Source of the DNA: a virus
Lineage: Duplodnaviria; Heunggongvirae; Uroviricota; Caudoviricetes
Direction: 5' to 3' (one strand)
DNA length: 30,614 bases
Virus record (IMG/VR): IMGVR_UViG_2724679239_000009
Coordinates: 1 to 30,614 of that record
Below the pieces are notes generated by a model, which was not told where the DNA came from, ran no database searches, and saw only the letters and a program-made list of their open reading frames with translations. The translations under genes were made by a program, and so were the position numbers. How positions within the stretch are numbered: the stretch's first letter is position 1; every line of letters begins with the position of its first letter. Shown in pieces: positions 8,660-25,362 of the stretch.

Positions 8660-9749
8660 CGTTCTTTTCCTCTTTGCCTTTCGTATCTTTAAAATCATTC
8701 AACGGATTTGCTGCATTTACGCTGACCAGCATTTCATCCAGACCATCAACCGGGTTCATGTCCTCAAATGCCCTGGCTTCATTCCGGCTCATCCAGCCAT
8801 CTGTAATGGCAAAGTGATAAAACTGCGCACGCTCCTGTGGAGTCCCGCGGAGCAATCCTGTAAGGTTGAAACGAACGTAATACCCGGCAGCCCGTTCTGT
8901 GCGGGTAAACAGGCGACGGTTAAGCTCCTGCTCCCAGTTCGCAACCCAGGGCATCATCGTGTAGCGAACAAACTGAATCGCCTGCTGTGTAATATTCGAA
9001 AATGTGGCTTTTTCCAGGTCATTAATCATGTGCGCCGGGACATTAAAAATTCCGGCAATCATCGACCGGTTCAGCTTGGTCATATCAATGATCTGAGCAT
9101 CCACCGGAGAAACTGTCAGGGCACGGTAATCCAGTTGCGCAGGCAGCAGCATGGTTTTATTTTCCTGACTGCGAAGCGCTGTCACCGCCCGCTGCCACAT
9201 ATTCTTGAGCCTGCTCCAACTCTGTTCGTTCAGTTCATTTTTCACAGAGATAATCCCGGCAGGACGGGCATTACCGTTAAAAAAAGCACTGGTATACTGC
9301 TGACCACTCATTCCCATACCAATGGTTTCAGCATGCTGCATGATCGGACTCAGTCCCATTTTCTGATTGTTTCCCAGCGCCCTGATATGGATCATATCGT
9401 CCGGACTTACCGCAAATGCCCCCTCTTCGTTATACACCCCGTAGGTATGACGCCCACCAGTATTAAGTAACGTGGTTTCCCATGGCATACAGCATTCAAG
9501 ACTGGTAACCTCGCCACGACGATTACGTTTTACCCACGTATAACCATTGCCCCACCCCAGCACATGACGCTGCTTCAGTTCCCGCCACTTATAGCTGGTC
9601 TGCCAGGCATTAGGTTCATCATGAACGAGCCAGAACAACGGATGATCGCGTGCCGGCTGAACATGCTCATTCGTTTTTCGCATCACATGCAGGGGCATCT
9701 GAGCCACACTGGATGAAATAACATAAATACAGGCATAGACAGCAGCCAG
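8652..9749 (-). pseudogene. Portal protein, C-terminal 365 codons, cut off from its start by IS2
   Basis: The portal reading frame runs straight out of the IS2 terminal repeat. The listed ORF start at 9776 lies inside IS2 and is an artefact. Confidence 0.85.
9745..9749. repeat. IS2 target-site duplication GCCAG (left copy)
   Basis: The 5 bp immediately flanking both IS2 ends are identical (GCCAG at 9745-9749 and 11081-11085). Confidence 0.85.
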
Positions 9750-18914: not shown

Positions 18915-20021
18915 TCAAACAATCTGGAAAATATTTCTTGGATTTGTAATAGGTCTGTTGATGGAGAACAACTCACGAATTAAATCTTGGCTCAAGCCAG
19001 TTTTCATAAGAATTCTTAGCCAGGTTGCATCATCCAGCATTTCAATCGCCTCGGCCAGCATGCCGGGTTCTTCAGGGCGCAAAAGTTCATCACCAGGTTC
19101 AACTCTCGTATACCCTCTGGAATTAAGATGCATATAGCCAGTTCTTGCCTGTTCCTGGGTCAATAAGCCTAATGCGCTGGCTCGATAAATACACATTTTA
19201 AGGCTGATTTTCCATCTAAGTTTAAATTCAACCAGAGCATTCCAGTCGAATTGCTTACCTCGTATTCGTGGAAATTCTTTAATGAAAGATAACCTGGGAA
19301 CTAATAAGGCGCTCGAAAAGTGATCGGCTTGAGATTCCGTAAGTTTATCACCTGTCGTTATGCCCTCATGCATTACTAAATGCCCTAATTCATGACCTAA
19401 ATCAGAGCGAAATCTACATATGCTTTTTTTAACATTGTTCCTGATGATAACAGGCCTGTTATTGTGAACAGTAAAAGCATCAACACGATCATCGACTCCC
19501 GTAACATGCGCAACGATTACCCCTAAACTCTCCGCCAATTTAACCATTGATGATATAGGGCCAAGACCTAAATTCCAGGCACGGCGACAATCTTCTGCCA
19601 CTCGCTCAATATCATTCGGAGTAAGTAATTCAGCCCCTGGGTGCTCCGGTATGTTAACGTCAGGAAATTCGATTTCACCTTCAACAGCAGAAATTATAAT
19701 ATTAAGAATCTCAGCCCTGGCCAATACACTATTAGTCAGCGTTTGAGTCCTGGACTTCTTACTCCGAAAATGGCAGACATCACTTTCCAGAGCGTATTTT
19801 CGTTCAGTAAAAAGAAAACTGGACTTAATCATAAGCGCTGAAGATATTAACTCAAGACATTGCTCCGATGGCCTGCACCCCTTCTCCAGTTTGCTAACGA
19901 ATTGCTTTGTCTTGCCAATTTTTTCGGCTAACTCTTCACAAGAAAGCCCAACAGCCATTCTCGCTAGTTTGAGCTTATCACCCCGATACTCAGTGAAGTT
20001 ATTCACCTGATGTTCCATCAC
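18915..20021 (-). CDS. Fusion protein: N-terminal Xre-type HTH plus ImmA/IrrE (COG2856-like) zinc metallopeptidase
   Basis: HTH segment LKLARMAVGLSCEELAEKIGKTKQFVSKLEKG; central HEXXH zinc motif (GHELGHLVMHEG). AT-rich codon usage. Start overlaps the upstream gene by 23 nt. Confidence 0.75.
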   Translation of the reverse strand: MMEHQVNNFTEYRGDKLKLARMAVGLSCEELAEKIGKTKQFVSKLEKGCRPSEQCLELISSALMIKSSFLFTERKYALESDVCHFRSKKSRTQTLTNSVLARAEILNIIISAVEGEIEFPDVNIPEHPGAELLTPNDIERVAEDCRRAWNLGLGPISSMVKLAESLGVIVAHVTGVDDRVDAFTVHNNRPVIIRNNVKKSICRFRSDLGHELGHLVMHEGITTGDKLTESQADHFSSALLVPRLSFIKEFPRIRGKQFDWNALVEFKLRWKISLKMCIYRASALGLLTQEQARTGYMHLNSRGYTRVEPGDELLRPEEPGMLAEAIEMLDDATWLRILMKTGLSQDLIRELFSINRPITNPRNIFQIV

Positions 20022-20649
20022 TGCTCACATCCAAATCTTTATCCTTCGTACGCCGACGAAGAGGCACCTTATTAATCTCCGCTTCGTCAGGGAGTGTGTT
20101 ATAATCAAGAGGCATAAGCGGCATCGATGCTGTAGATTGATGAGAAACTATACTAATCTGAGCACCATAAGTATTAAATCCAACAAGAGCTACCTCCCAA
20201 CGAGGCAGTGTGGACTCTAATTCACCATCGCCCTCTTCGGATAAAAAAGGCTCAGCTATGACTCGCCATGTAATATCTTGCTCAGCCTCAACATCACCAA
20301 ACAATGAGAGCTGCTCATACTCTACTTTATTTCGACGCAGACGATGTTTCTTTTTGGGGTTATTAATGCAATCTTTGGTAAATTGTAGCGGAACTTTATT
20401 TAAAGCAACTACATAGTCCAACCCCTTGGAAATCATCTCAAGGCCAGGAATTGCATCTTCATTTTGAATAAGATGATTTCTGACCCAATCATAAGCCCTT
20501 ACACCTTCAGACCAGTTGCTGTCTAATGCGTGCTTATGATAGTACAGCTGCTCAAGTACGTTAGCGATCTCCGCCAACAAGTGGCGAACATAGTTTTCAG
20601 CAAGATAAGGTTGAAATTCCCAACAAGGAGCTAACTGATTTTCATTCAT
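19999..20649 (-). CDS. Hypothetical protein (216 aa), first gene of a two-gene accessory operon
   Basis: ORF with acidic C-terminus and no motif I recognise. A consensus -35 hexamer TTGACA (minus strand, 20708-20713) lies upstream. Confidence 0.6.
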   Translation of the reverse strand: MNENQLAPCWEFQPYLAENYVRHLLAEIANVLEQLYYHKHALDSNWSEGVRAYDWVRNHLIQNEDAIPGLEMISKGLDYVVALNKVPLQFTKDCINNPKKKHRLRRNKVEYEQLSLFGDVEAEQDITWRVIAEPFLSEEGDGELESTLPRWEVALVGFNTYGAQISIVSHQSTASMPLMPLDYNTLPDEAEINKVPLRRRTKDKDLDVSSDGTSGE

Positions 20650-21341: not shown

Positions 21342-22373
21342 CTACCAATCAATAAAATCAGTGATGTTATCCAACCTAATTACAGTAACTTCCCGTCTCA
21401 ACTGGTTTTTCCAATATATCTCACGAGCGTTTTGTTCACCAGCACCGCTCCACTCAATTACTCTTAAAGGCTTAGAGGTTAGGTAAGGTCGAATAAGCAG
21501 GTTAAGGTGAATATCGAGACCAGAGTAACCAAACAATATTATTTCTTCTGATTCAAATAATGCAAACTGCAAATAATCCCAGTACGTAGAAAGAACATTA
21601 GATGCTGCTATAACTGACGGTTTTCTTTTTATATGAGTTAACACTATATGCTCACTAGGTTCATCTATGTCAAGAGTAAGTTGTGAGCGTGAAAGTTTTA
21701 AAACATTTTCATGCTGATTAATAAATAGTGGTGAACCATGCAAGTGCAAATAATAACCAAACCTACGATTGTATTTCCGTTCGAGCGCTGCAGAGGAAAA
21801 TCCGTGGCTTAGCATCCCATCAACTAAAACCCCATCATACCCGTTGAATATATCATTATCTATGAATGAATTGTATAATAATTTGTCATAGTTTAATGTC
21901 GCGATATGTGAGTGTGTGTTCTTTACAAACTCCACAAGCGCATTTTCGAATCTTTGTGGCAAACCTTTATCGTAATTATGCAACCTGGTTGCAACTTTGT
22001 GAATATAAGTGGCGGTAATTTTGGGGAAGTTTAGTCCATCTTCAGTAAGCCAATGCACGTTCCCCTCTCCAATTTGAGCAAGAGCTTTACAATATGTGAC
22101 AGCCTGGTGAAGGGTATCCAACTCATGTTCTCCTTCTGGTGGACCTTGCCGCTGAAGACAACGCTCGATAAGTTGCTTGTGGATATCTTTTAAAAAATTG
22201 GGGCGATGCCAAATTTCTTCCAACGCTCTGTCTAAGGAGAAGTGAGCAGGATCTAAAGCCATACCGAGACCGTTGCCGAATATTATTAATTTTCTTGCCA
22301 TATAGGGGGACTCATATTGGAATAACGCTGGATAGCGTCGCGCGATACGCTTAAGTTTAGGATTAATAGACAT
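21342..22373 (-). CDS. SIR2-like (SIR2_2 / DHS-like NAD-binding fold) protein, candidate NAD+-consuming defence effector
   Basis: 343 aa. Motifs in the expected order: glycine-rich IIFGNGLGMA near the N-terminus, TLNYDKLL (sirtuin TQNID/TTNYD-like), LHLHGS (catalytic His-Gly), ILFGYSGLD. Strongly AT-rich with an AT-rich 370-bp upstream region. Confidence 0.6.
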   Translation of the reverse strand: MSINPKLKRIARRYPALFQYESPYMARKLIIFGNGLGMALDPAHFSLDRALEEIWHRPNFLKDIHKQLIERCLQRQGPPEGEHELDTLHQAVTYCKALAQIGEGNVHWLTEDGLNFPKITATYIHKVATRLHNYDKGLPQRFENALVEFVKNTHSHIATLNYDKLLYNSFIDNDIFNGYDGVLVDGMLSHGFSSAALERKYNRRFGYYLHLHGSPLFINQHENVLKLSRSQLTLDIDEPSEHIVLTHIKRKPSVIAASNVLSTYWDYLQFALFESEEIILFGYSGLDIHLNLLIRPYLTSKPLRVIEWSGAGEQNAREIYWKNQLRREVTVIRLDNITDFIDW

Positions 22374-22741
22374 TCCGTTTGATTACACTTGTTATTACAA
22401 ACTTGCATGCAAAGAAGCCCAAGCTGTTAGGTAAACAGAGACCGCAGTGGCAAGATAATCTAGATATAGCCTATAAAATCCAACAACAAATAGCGGCCTG
22501 TTTTCTATGACTTTTCTTTTCCCTAAATATCGCTTATCTAATAAAATGCAATAATGTATTGCACAGTATTTAATGTGTATTAATATAGATAAGTATTGGT
22601 CTTATTTGATAACAAATCCTGAGCCTCAAAATGTCTGCTTTTCACACAAAACCAACAAGTAGGCTATTTTTAGCTCTGTGCCGCGAAAATGTCAATTCAT
22701 ATCCGAACCAATACTCTTTAATTTCATTACCTGTGACAATT

Positions 22742-23149
22742 CTAGGCATATCCCTGATAGAACGCCAATACACGCTGCATAACTTCGCTCTTCCGGCACT
22801 CGCGACAGATTATGTTCATACGCCTGTCGTAGCGGCGTATTTCTCCGTCGGGTAATGTCCAGATAAGGCCCGGATCAACCACAACAGGTTTCTTCACCTT
22901 TGCCCTCGAGAGTTTTTTGCGGGCGTTTTGCCAGTCCTTACGAGCCCGTTCTGACGGGAACACCCCATAGCCAGAGTGATATACATCACCACTGGCAACC
23001 AGCTCTCTGGCAAGAACGCTCATCAGATATCTTGTCGCACCTGTTTTAGCTTCCAGTTGCCGTAACGTCTCACGACCGCTCTGGCGCACGAGTTCCACCA
23101 CCTGTCCTTTAATTTTTTCCCGCTCTTCCTGTGTAAATACTTTTGCCAT
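22742..23149 (-). CDS. Ren-like protein
   Basis: The C-terminus ...ICRECRKSEVMQRVLAFYQGYA resembles the lambda Ren C-terminus as I recall it, and the gene follows the replication gene as ren does in lambda. Confidence 0.45.
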   Translation of the reverse strand: MAKVFTQEEREKIKGQVVELVRQSGRETLRQLEAKTGATRYLMSVLARELVASGDVYHSGYGVFPSERARKDWQNARKKLSRAKVKKPVVVDPGLIWTLPDGEIRRYDRRMNIICRECRKSEVMQRVLAFYQGYA

Positions 23150-23189
23150 AAGTCCTCCTGAACATTACTTTATGCCCTAAAATCACCAC

Positions 23190-24155
23190 TTATCCCCTGA
23201 AACCAGGCGGAATTTCGGTATCCGGTTCAGAAATATGATTCACACAACACTGTACAGGTGAACGCCCCAGGCGGATGACCAGGTCGTCCCATTTTTCGCG
23301 AAGCTTTGACGGGCTCATGATGTTTTTTACCCAGAATGGATCTCGCTGTACCCGACCAAACATTTCGCAAATTTGTCTGTGGCTTCTGCCATCCAGCATC
23401 CGCATTGTGCGCACGTCATTGGCCCATGCGGTCCAGTTTGGTTCTTTCGGTCGCGTGATCTCGCCATCATCGCTGGCAGCCTGCTCGTAAAGACTCACGA
23501 TTCGTCCCCAGATCCACTGTGCGCACGCCAAATCTTCCTGACTTCCCCACTGGCGTTTTTTCGCACTGAACACAACCGCGTCAGGGTGTCGGGTTAAAAA
23601 ATCCTGTTCAGCCGTCTGCGGGTCCGGTTGCGAAGCTTCCGGACGAGAAGTGTTTTTATTCTCTGTAGTAATCTCTGTTGTATTCTCTGTAAGATCATCA
23701 GGCCATTTTGACCCGATGACATTGGGTCGTTTTGAACCAATGGAGCGTGCCATTTTGACCTCTTCCATCGTGTCATTTTGACCCGATGGAGCGGCGCATT
23801 TTGACCTGATGGATTCGCTCACTTTGCCACCATCTAAAAGCTCACTCTCGTAATTAATCGTGTAAAAATTAGTCATATCACGCTTTGATTTGTTGAGCTT
23901 TTCGCAACGCAAAAGCCCCAGCGTTTTCAGACTTGCAAATGCGCGTTTTAACGTTGACTCTGACCAGAACGGGAACTGTTCCAGCCATTGTTCTGTTGTG
24001 TTATAAATCCAGCGAACCCCGTCACATTCCATACCGGAACTGGTATCTCTCAACCAGTAATGCAACTGCTGCAACACAATGGCTTCATTTAAGCCAATCT
24101 TCATCGCAAGCTGTGTGTTTATAACCAGTGGGCGTTCAGCAAAAAGAAGGCTCAT
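23190..24155 (-). CDS. Replication initiator (O-like replisome organiser) with internal origin iterons
   Basis: N-terminal DNA-binding-like region, low-complexity linker (ENTTEITTENKNTSRPEASQPDPQ), and an iteron array inside the coding sequence. Start placed at MSLLFAERP (24155) to avoid a 74-nt overlap; 24209 is the alternative. Confidence 0.65.
   Translation of the reverse strand: MSLLFAERPLVINTQLAMKIGLNEAIVLQQLHYWLRDTSSGMECDGVRWIYNTTEQWLEQFPFWSESTLKRAFASLKTLGLLRCEKLNKSKRDMTNFYTINYESELLDGGKVSESIRSKCAAPSGQNDTMEEVKMARSIGSKRPNVIGSKWPDDLTENTTEITTENKNTSRPEASQPDPQTAEQDFLTRHPDAVVFSAKKRQWGSQEDLACAQWIWGRIVSLYEQAASDDGEITRPKEPNWTAWANDVRTMRMLDGRSHRQICEMFGRVQRDPFWVKNIMSPSKLREKWDDLVIRLGRSPVQCCVNHISEPDTEIPPGFRG
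23704..23813. repeat. Origin-type iterons: five copies of CATTTTGACC(N)GATGGA-like repeats at 23-24 bp spacing
   Basis: Copies start at 23704, 23728 (degenerate), 23751, 23774, 23797. They are followed at 23660-23694 by three TCTCTGT repeats at 12-bp spacing. Confidence 0.8.
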
Positions 24156-24657
24156 AATTCCATCCAGCTTTTTGTTGGTATTGCTGACGATACGCATGCT
24201 TGAAAGCAATAGCTTTTTCTATAAGCTCGTCAGTCTCACGTTCCACAACAGATGGATCCGCAAAAAGCAGCCCGGACTCCACCACATCACCATATTCTTT
24301 GTTTAACCCGGCGATCATGTACGTAATGCTTTTTCCGTCAGTAATTTCACAATACAACCTGAAATCGCTGATCCGGATAGCCTCCATAATTGCCGGAATC
24401 AGCGCCGTGAATTTTTCCCGCTTATCCCTGGTGTCGATAGCTTTCCAGCGTTCGAATATCTTCACCCGGTTAACGCCCAACGCCCGTTGATCAACCTCGC
24501 CATCATTAAACGTGACGCGTTGAACATCGATGTTCGGGCGTTCTTTCAGAGCCCAGAATGCTTCCGTGATTAATATCGTCGCCTGCTCCTGTGTCATTCC
24601 TGGTCGGCATACCCAGGCATCCAGAGCCTCACAAACCTGTTCAGGGGTGATTTTCAT
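24136..24657 (-). CDS. YdaT-like / cII-position protein (173 aa)
   Basis: Sits between the cro-like dicC and the replication initiator. The family call is tentative. Confidence 0.4.
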   Translation of the reverse strand: MKITPEQVCEALDAWVCRPGMTQEQATILITEAFWALKERPNIDVQRVTFNDGEVDQRALGVNRVKIFERWKAIDTRDKREKFTALIPAIMEAIRISDFRLYCEITDGKSITYMIAGLNKEYGDVVESGLLFADPSVVERETDELIEKAIAFKHAYRQQYQQKAGWNYEPSFC

Positions 24658-24871
24658 TGTTCAACCGCCCCGCCCGCTTTGCCTTACGATATTCGTCATA
24701 AACTTTGGGGTCGTACTGAAGTTCCCCGCCGGATGCATCTTGCAGGCGCATCGCGCGACCTTCAGGTACTAGCACCCCTTTCCAGCTATAAAGCGAAGCC
24801 AAACGAATACCAGCAGCTTGTGCAAGTTTTGTTTTTGAACCGAAATACAAAAGTGCGTCAGTTTTAAGCAT
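24641..24871 (-). CDS. dicC: DicC-like Cro-type regulator
   Basis: 76 aa, MLKTDALLYFGSKTKLAQAAGIRLASLYSWKG..., divergent from dicA. Recognised as Qin DicC-like. Confidence 0.8.
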   Translation of the reverse strand: MLKTDALLYFGSKTKLAQAAGIRLASLYSWKGVLVPEGRAMRLQDASGGELQYDPKVYDEYRKAKRAGRLNNENHP

Positions 24872-24886
24872 TTAAAGCACCTTAAT

Positions 24887-24904
24887 TGTTAGCCATAACT
24901 AACA
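24887..24904. promoter_or_regulatory. Operator-like palindrome TGTTAGCCATAACTAACA in the dicA-dicC divergent promoter region
   Basis: Near-perfect 18-bp palindrome. Related copies TGTTAGCTATGAC (25398) and TGTTAGCCATGAC (25432) lie downstream of dicA, and TTAGCATTAGCTAA is at 24939-24952. Confidence 0.6.
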
Positions 24905-24954
24905 GAATGGATGTTAACAAAAACATAGTCAATAAGATTTAGCATTAGCTAACT

Positions 24955-25362
24955 ATGGATACAAAAAATTTAACCATTGGCGAACGCATTAGATATCGCC
25001 GAAAAAACCTCAAATACACCCAAAGGTCTCTTGCTAAAGCCCTGAAAATTTCTCATGTATCGGTTTCACAATGGGAACGGGATGATAGCGAACCTACAGG
25101 AAAGAATCTTTTTGCCCTCAGCAAAGTACTGCAGTGCTCGCCAACATGGATTCTATTTGGCGATGAAGACAAGCAGCCATCACCACCTATTGAGGAGCCA
25201 GTTGCTCTATCCCCCAAAGAACATGAGCTCCTTGAGCTTTTTAATGCATTGCCTGAATCAGAACAGGATGCTCAGCTCACCGAGATGCGCGCCCGAGTAA
25301 AAAATTTCAACAAACTCTTTGAAGAGTTATTAAAAGCCCGTCAACGAACAAACAAAAGATAA
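24955..25362 (+). CDS. dicA: DicA-like repressor (Xre-HTH, no S24 peptidase domain)
   Basis: MDTKNLTIGERIRYRRKNLKYTQRSLAKALKISHVSVSQWERDDSEPTGKNLFALSKVLQCSPTWILFGDED... matches Qin DicA as I recall it. Confidence 0.85.
   Translation: MDTKNLTIGERIRYRRKNLKYTQRSLAKALKISHVSVSQWERDDSEPTGKNLFALSKVLQCSPTWILFGDEDKQPSPPIEEPVALSPKEHELLELFNALPESEQDAQLTEMRARVKNFNKLFEELLKARQRTNKR

Follow-up and report, generated by a model that had tools for sequence, protein, structure and literature searches.

The replication module of a lambdoid prophage was analyzed in a 30,614-nt stretch of DNA from a virus of the Caudoviricetes (IMG/VR record IMGVR_UViG_2724679239_000009, positions 1 to 30,614), and the whole of this 30.6-kb stretch is called the window below. 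A lambda-O-like replication initiator gene lies at 23190..24155 on the minus strand and encodes 321 aa from the ATG at 24155 (MSLLFAERP...), the coordinates including the stop codon. Its product matched PHROG families 391 (E 7.5e-95), 9773 and 277, labelled 'replication initiation O-like', and a candidate replication origin composed of iterons and shorter direct repeats is located inside the gene itself. A longer open reading frame from TTG 24209 gives 339 aa (23190-24209, minus) and runs into the upstream gene; this length, given in an earlier note on the same DNA (the original prediction), is 18 residues too many, the homologues and the coding sequences annotated in phages HannyBb and mEp460 having 321 aa. 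The initiator is followed, across a junction of 40 nt (23150..23189, minus) examined by junction alignment, by a DUF977 / LygF gene (22742..23149, minus; Pfam DUF977 E 1.7e-29; PHROG 142), which is not a loader. The next gene had been described as Ren-like; it does stand directly after the initiator, while 'Ren-like' is merely a PHROG label on the DUF977/LygF protein.

Five 23-bp iterons with the core CATTTTGACC (GGTCAAAATG on the coding strand) were located at 23696..23811 using a repeat search and Tandem Repeats Finder. The copies occupy 23696-23718, 23720-23742, 23743-23765, 23766-23788 and 23789-23811, with spacings of 24, 23, 23 and 23, in agreement with the five iterons at 23-24 bp spacing proposed before. 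Tandem Repeats Finder assigned a period of 23 to 23730-23813 and 23773-23826, and a period of 12 to 23660-23691. The 10-mer CATTTTGACC has exactly four copies in the window, all inside 103 bp (23704-23806); by simple arithmetic, the chance expectation for any one 10-mer in 2 x 30.6 kb is ~0.06 exact copies. Of the five iterons, the fifth is degenerate (CGTTTTGAAC), and three have internal dyad symmetry, e.g. TCCATCGTGTCA / TGACCCGATGGA. Downstream of the iterons in the direction of transcription, on the promoter-distal side, three A+T-rich 12-bp direct repeats (TATTCTCTGTAG, TAATCTCTGTTG and TATTCTCTGTAA) were found at 23657..23692, where three short direct repeats at 12-bp spacing had been predicted, and these form a candidate DNA-unwinding element. 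The G+C content of the 12-mer block (0.35-0.375) is the minimum on that side and rises to 0.525-0.60 further downstream in the gene. On their promoter-proximal side, the iterons are flanked by a second A+T-rich stretch (23840-23899, G+C 0.325); its synonymous conservation is 0.47-0.53, without excess, which makes it a weaker candidate for the unwinding element than the 12-mers. Beyond the A+T-rich block and inside the plateau of synonymous conservation there is a short inverted repeat, GTCCGG N11 CCGGAC (23622..23644), which is weak and may be due to chance.

Scans of Pfam and NCBIfam gave no usable family for the initiator. AlphaFold2, given an alignment of 25 sequences, modelled the protein with a mean pLDDT of 70 and with two folded parts. 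The N-terminal winged-helix domain (codons 1-109, 23829..24155, minus), which is presumed to bind the iterons, resembles plasmid and DnaD-type initiators in a fold search with the predicted structure. The helical C-terminal domain (codons 179-297, 23265..23621, minus; pLDDT 80-96) is a lambda O homologue: BLASTP aligned it with the C-terminal domain of lambda O at 34% identity over 148 aa (E 3e-27), the alignment ending before the tails of both proteins. With this match and that to PHROG 391, the similarity to phage replication initiators, on which the original prediction had made itself depend, was found. The disordered parts of the model are residues 299-321, forming a tail, and residues 110-174 (pLDDT <50). 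The latter are exactly the segment encoded by the origin, whose repeats sit in the codons for residues ~115-167, so that the proposed location in the linker-coding part of an O-like gene was borne out. The initiator family is large: a 50%-identity library contained 12,355 representatives at E <= 0.001, among which N- and C-terminal domains are combined in many ways. Two relatives come from contigs of metagenome-assembled genomes (MAGs) labelled Bacillota and Veillonella parvula (L091 and L092); their C-terminal domain and tail are 95% identical to those of the window protein and are accompanied by the same DUF977 neighbour, and the labels most likely reflect mis-binned Enterobacteriaceae phage DNA.

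The constraint on the repeats was determined by comparison with homologous genes from Citrobacter (L004) and E. coli (L006 and L007), each with ~70% protein identity, and from the closer phage HannyBb (L003). In all four, the iteron cores lie at gene nucleotides 350, 373, 396, 419 and 443 and three ACAGAGA 12-mers at 466, 478 and 490, the same coordinates as in the window, so the conservation in homologous genes that the original prediction called for was present at ~70% protein identity. Third codon positions were 94-100% identical to the window in the iteron cores and 100% in the 12-mers, compared with 38-65% in the DNA coding for the N- and C-terminal domains. Sliding third-position identity delimited a cis-acting origin at 23616..23825 (gene nucleotides 331-540), with values of 0.80-1.00 vs 0.27-0.73 elsewhere in the gene. 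Since third positions are this much better conserved in the repeats than in the flanking domains, selection acts on the repeat DNA itself. The repeats could in principle be a by-product of a low-complexity linker (GSK / TTEN repeats) with no role as DNA, as they encode the motifs SKC..GSKR..GSKW and TENTTEITTEN in a disordered segment; against this stand the third-position identities, the expectation that constraint on a protein should be weakest in a disordered linker, and the proven iterons of lambda at the same gene position. Moreover, in homologues with another N-terminal domain the corresponding place in the gene holds other repeats of similar period (15/30, 22 or 24). The by-product explanation is accordingly very improbable. 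The change of the iterons along with the type of N-terminal domain is the pattern expected of initiator-iteron specificity pairs. Among the homologues, four proteins of 290 aa (P0020-P0023) miss 31 residues, i.e. 93 nt corresponding to ~23720-23812 of the window and to four of the five iterons; the deletion looks like inter-iteron recombination, and the resulting one-iteron origin is probably inactive.

The organisation resembles that of ori-lambda, as had been claimed, with nearly the same iteron position in the gene and an A+T-rich block beyond. In both cases the origin lies in the linker-coding part of the initiator gene, the first iteron starting at nucleotide 349 of lambda O and the first iteron core at nucleotide 350 here, and beyond the iterons come an A+T-rich block and a small element resembling a palindrome. 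The C-terminal domains are homologous and the gene order cI / cro / cII-like / initiator is shared with the lambda O-P module. The differences are that five 23-bp iterons of other sequence replace the four 18-19-bp iterons of lambda, that the N-terminal domain is not detectably lambda-O-like by sequence (no Pfam match), and that the window has no P gene, with DUF977 standing next instead. With its iteron array in linker code, its A+T-rich flank and its constraint on DNA, the locus has the structure of an origin of the ori-lambda kind, and its function as such is predicted. Iteron plasmid origins usually carry DnaA boxes and use DnaA. Near the origin of the window no DnaA box (TTWTNCACA) was found, the matches in the window lying solely at 9238 and 30272 and being no commoner than chance; a DnaA-assisted, plasmid-like route was dropped because no DnaA box lies close to the origin. 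The window also differs from the iteron plasmid Rep initiators (pSC101 RepA, R6K pi, RK2 TrfA and staphylococcal RepA_N) in having the origin inside the initiator coding sequence and a lambda-O-like C-terminal domain.

The point added here to the original prediction is a DnaT-type tail on the initiator. Codons 305-321 (23193..23243, minus) encode the disordered tail VNHISEPDTEIPPGFRG, which, from its match to the C-termini of DnaT and YdaU, is proposed to be a docking peptide for the DnaC-type loader pathway. The tail is identical to residues 163-179 of E. coli DnaT (VNTVSEPDSQIPPGFRG) at 13 of 17 positions, the last seven residues, IPPGFRG, being the same, and the Klebsiella DnaT tail INSVSEPDNHIPPGFRG was matched as well (chains 6aep and 2ru8; PDB sequence search). 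These last 17-18 residues are the sole similarity of the initiator to any solved structure or curated family (PDB, NCBIfam): the NCBIfam DnaT model NF002770 gave 14.1 bits vs a cut-off of 201, with only positions 162-179 matching. Several PHROG replication-protein families likewise match the initiator through the tail alone. A DnaT-like nature of the whole C-terminal domain was considered and rejected; hhalign with the tails removed gave a probability of 0.04%, no DnaT chain was among the fold-search matches listed, and the three-helix C-terminal domain with which DnaT binds single-stranded DNA (ssDNA) was not found in the window protein. By these comparisons the initiator is not a DnaT homologue, and carries DnaT's tail on a lambda-O-like body. 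Like the tail of E. coli DnaT, its tail is a C-terminal extension past the folded domain, and in E. coli dnaC comes next, as in the phage cassettes; beyond the tail there is no similarity. DnaT is sent to forks by PriA/PriB, whereas the window protein is predicted to be sent to the origin by its iterons.

The tail (...EPDTEIPPGFRG) is common to the initiator, to host DnaT, encoded just upstream of dnaC, and to YdaU of the Rac prophage, encoded just upstream of ydaV. The host dnaC gene starts 2 nt after dnaT; YdaU ends with ...VNTVSLPDSAIPPGFRG, and 7 nt after its gene comes that for YdaV, a protein with 50% identity to DnaC. The ydaU-ydaV module further shares with the window the neighbours YdaS/Cro and YdaT upstream and DUF977/YdaW downstream and the same sequence at the stop-codon junction, and differs in the unrelated DUF1376 body of YdaU. 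Rac and many sister phages keep a DnaC paralogue (IstB/DnaC-like AAA+) 7 nt past the tail, in the junction that in the window leads straight to DUF977. The junction reads ...ATTCCGCCNGGNTTCAGGGGN TAA and then either CGGGCCATGAAAAATAT... (dnaC-like) or the DUF977 leader, with the boundary exactly at the stop codon in three initiator families, and its alignment shows that the tail is retained at protein level despite synonymous changes. In viral contigs at least six protein bodies that are unrelated to one another ended with the IPPGFRG-stop tail, among them phage proteins that have the complete C-terminal domain of DnaT. Proteins of the latter kind, encoded by IMG/VR contigs (L211, L220, L235 and L268), combine this domain (…FHHxQWQQKLARSVQ…) and IPPGFRG with phage-type N-terminal bodies, which fits a phage origin of DnaT, as proposed for DnaC.

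That neither a lambda P gene nor a DnaB/DnaC-like gene is present was confirmed by tblastn across the window, in which lambda P, two other P proteins, E. coli DnaC, YdaV, two phage DnaC-like proteins, DnaB and DnaT were used as queries and gave no match. The tblastn search for loader genes in the complete HannyBb genome gave no match either, and the HannyBb annotation lists no helicase or loader. The order of initiator and then DUF977 is also found in the isolated phages HannyBb, mEp460 (mEp460_ev081) and PhiR42_1.

To relate the type of tail to the loader gene, two scans were performed. In the first, a 12-sequence alignment of the C-terminal domain was searched against one genome per species, giving 72 loci in which tails and downstream genes were classified; a 19-sequence alignment was too divergent for this genome scan. 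In the second, genes ending with IPPGFRG-stop were collected from viral contigs, giving 120 loci. The relatives from an initial search of viral contigs all had at least 95% identity and were thus unfit for the covariation test. Counts were dereplicated at 90% identity, and a loader gene was counted if it started at most 600 nt from the stop codon. W-type tails, i.e. that of lambda O (...TNTDWIYGVDL) and those resembling ...HWNSAEAWENTL, formed 26 clusters, of which 25 had lambda P next, none a DnaC-like gene and one no loader. The GFRG-type tail formed 37 clusters: none had lambda P next, 13 had a DnaC-like gene and 24, spread over several genera, had no loader. In its GFRG-type tail the window protein differs from lambda O, whose tail type is P-paired in relatives (25/26 clusters). 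The single W-type exception was L148, where a P fragment remains; the tails of L148-L150 (...EWNTDEGWRGML) are W-type. Neither a DnaB-type helicase nor P followed a GFRG-type tail among the scanned loci, and in the viral-contig scan the DnaC-like gene, where present after the IPPGFRG tail, was always at +7. In the alignment of close homologues all proteins end with IPxGFRG except P0033 (L007), and the GFRG loci have no P gene directly after the initiator. P0033, which is 72% identical, ends with ...GDWNSADGWEDVL, a W-type tail, and a Phage_lambda_P gene stands directly after it.

Some further tails were seen in these scans. The P-paired initiators (lambda O at L088:687-1586 and 25 dereplicated relatives, e.g. 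L007, L100, L107, L125 and L155) have a tryptophan-rich C-terminus, [DHEN]WNxx[EDQ]xW...[LI] or D[FL]xNTDW..., which may be the contact of O with P. In Burkholderiales, with loci from Duganella/Janthinobacterium and one Oxalobacteraceae MAG (L134, L135, L137-L139, L142 and L146), 7/7 related initiators keep their own IstB/DnaC-like gene; their tail is …QDYRAGVxADGSF, the DnaC-like gene overlaps the stop by 58 nt, and no loader-less variant was seen among the seven. A distant relative of the C-terminal domain with another tail, in a Geobacteraceae MAG (L157), is followed 8 nt later by a gene for a DnaB-type helicase 38% identical to E. coli DnaB, and thus pairs initiator and helicase.

The original prediction held that replication would need host loading factors or be defective. 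The first part was supported; the second is unlikely, since the arrangement is shared by HannyBb and mEp460, two isolated phages, of which the latter belongs to a phage set reported to complete lytic and lysogenic cycles in E. coli (PMC9836094). A decaying remnant would be a module from which the dnaC-like gene was deleted, with the tail left over, the repeats kept by recent ancestry and autonomous replication lost. Such an event is suggested by the sister loci L251 and L279, in which initiators 95.6% identical to that of the window are followed by a ydaV/DnaC-like gene at +7, and also by the deletion variants without four iterons (P0020) and by the many copies that are prophages in E. coli genomes. 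It is at odds with the occurrence of the loader-less arrangement in isolated phages (HannyBb and mEp460, PMC9836094) and in 24/37 dereplicated GFRG clusters of several genera, with the retention of the tail at protein level, and with the constraint on iterons and 12-mers in ~70%-identity homologues that likewise lack a loader gene (L004, L006). Decay is thus quite improbable. The cassette to which the module belongs is polymorphic, and the variant in the window has no loader gene. The term 'initiator-solo' for such a case is said to stem from Weigel and Seitz in 2006; a literature search for the term gave no match.

Taken together, the locus is best read as a lambdoid prophage origin situated inside its own initiator gene, as in lambda, and without a loader of its own, the GFRG tail of the initiator docking a DnaC-type loader with host DnaB. 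We put the probability of this reading at roughly 0.6. By analogy with lambda O and the iteron initiators, dimers of the winged-helix N-terminal domain would bind the five 23-bp iterons, and the nucleoprotein complex together with transcription from the cro promoter would melt the adjacent A+T-rich 12-mer block. At the opened origin, the tail would then act as a short docking peptide through which a DnaC-type loader is recruited together with the host DnaB that it carries. Phages with a ydaV-like gene would use their own DnaC, and the phage of the window, like mEp460 and HannyBb, would use host DnaB6-DnaC6. More tentatively, and with somewhat less than even confidence, ...EPDxxIPPGFRG may be a portable docking motif for DnaC-type loaders, common to DnaT and at least six unrelated families of phage initiators.

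A direct contact of the GFRG tail with the DnaB helicase, with DnaC as merely the usual partner of DnaB and with origin and initiator as described, is known in kind from loader-less iteron replicons, in which Rep-DnaB contact is established for pSC101 RepA, R6K pi and RK2 TrfA. The tail never occurs together with a phage DnaB-type helicase or P, as such a contact would predict; the same is expected if the tail engages DnaC-bound host DnaB. The P route and the DnaC route both employ the host's helicase, DnaB, and the covariation of tail and loader therefore points to the loader, not DnaB, as the contact. As lambda P also delivers host DnaB, direct contact does not explain the strict exclusion of the tail from P modules, nor does it explain the repeated pairing with DnaC paralogues (dnaT-dnaC, ydaU-ydaV, L093 and 13 dereplicated clusters). 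Direct contact is therefore unlikely.

Recruitment of the restart primosome (PriA and/or PriB) by the tail, leading to a PriA-dependent start at the opened origin, is suggested by the fact that DnaT, a preprimosome subunit, is the only cellular counterpart of the tail, and RAST calls the mEp460 protein 'Primosomal protein I'. The C-terminal domain of DnaT docks on PriA and its linker binds PriB (PMC13377028). These reported docking elements are, however, the folded C-terminal domain and an acidic linker, not residues 154-179, for which structural papers on DnaT describe a modest effect on cooperative ssDNA binding only. The window protein has no similarity to the DnaT C-terminal domain once the tail is removed (hhalign probability 0.04%), and recruitment of PriA or PriB would leave the covariation with loader type unexplained. 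It is accordingly even less likely than direct contact with DnaB.

Several points weigh against docking of a DnaC-type loader by the tail of an origin-bound O-like initiator. Pfam-A hmmscan of the initiator found no family at E <= 0.01, including the lambda O models for the N-terminal domain (Phage_rep_O) and the conserved phage C-terminus. The site of unwinding is not certain, owing to the second A+T-rich stretch at 23840-23899. It is gene covariation alone that suggests the partner of the tail, and the Fisher's exact test of W- vs GFRG-type tails by P (p = 1e-16) overstates independence, the loci being related; the GFRG counts moreover come mostly from a scan ascertained on the tail itself. 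The link between tail and dnaC could partly be linkage, the two adjacent genes being co-inherited as one recombination module. Regarding DnaT, its N-terminal domain and not its tail has been suggested as the recruiter of DnaB/DnaC (PMC13377028, 2026), and the way in which DnaT or the preprimosome recruits DnaB/DnaC is stated to be unknown, a contact of DnaC with PriA, PriB or DnaT not having been shown (PMC11087952, PMC13377028). Finally, the viability argument is drawn from the isolated relatives and not from the intactness of this prophage itself.

A combination of DnaT-type and O-type parts was described earlier in DopC, an O-like protein with a DnaT C-terminal motif and HHpred similarity to 2ru8 (Brezellec et al. 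2017, PMC5509034). DopC and DopE resemble the present case in this combination. DopC differs in being a domesticated chromosomal gene without iterons and in being paired with the P-like DopE, while the window protein shares the DnaT tail only and its tail type excludes P. A literature search found no paper presenting the tail as the determinant of loader choice.

The genes upstream of the initiator are those of a lambdoid early region. A YdaT/cII-like gene (24136..24657, minus; Pfam YdaT_toxin; PHROG 163 'CII-like') lies directly upstream, its end overlapping the initiator start by 20 nt, and is preceded by a Cro-like gene (24641..24871, minus; Pfam P22_Cro E 1.8e-10), with which the rightward early operon begins; this operon reads through the origin. 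A cI-type repressor gene is divergent from cro (24955..25362, plus; Pfam HTH_3 and Phage_CI_repr). With its HK97-like morphogenesis genes, Q, cro and cI, the 30.6-kb window as a whole has the content of a lambdoid prophage. A promoter and terminator scan of 22600-25000 gave counts not above those of shuffled sequence and was not used. In three database entries of 448 aa (P0004, P0005 and P0007) the YdaT-like protein is fused to the initiator; the fusion probably stems from a frameshift at the 20-nt overlap or from an error of gene calling there.

Defence cargo (18915-20649, minus; 21342-22373, minus) separates the DUF977 gene from the nin/Q region. It contains an RmrA/RmrT pair (PADLOC RmrA E 6e-105, RmrT E 5e-25) and, apart from the pair, a gene of the SIR2 family (Pfam SIR2_2; PADLOC matches to Aga_SIR2 and PDC-S21 weak). 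A gene at 27065-29545 (plus) encodes a protein of 826 aa with a C-terminal Rv2179c-like 3'-5' exonuclease domain (E 4e-68) and N-terminal 640 residues without a Pfam match, and stands where related lambdoid phages have their exonuclease gene.

In conclusion, the origin is of a known kind and is a typical example of it, and the loader-less, DnaT-tailed initiator is a variant. Confirming the origin chiefly improves annotation, as such widespread initiators are a 'hypothetical protein' at NCBI and 'Primosomal protein I' in RAST and have no Pfam family. The proposed role of the tail would account for a lambdoid phage doing without a loader gene in DnaC-bearing hosts. The natural tail swaps, W-rich with lambda P and GFRG with a DnaC-type loader or none, make the question of DnaB/DnaC recruitment testable. 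If the proposed role is true, lambdoid initiators would pick the delivery of the helicase, by phage P or by a phage or host DnaC-type loader, through swapping a tail of ~15 residues, and phage genomics would pinpoint the long-sought contact that recruits DnaB6-DnaC6 to the PriA-PriB-DnaT preprimosome.

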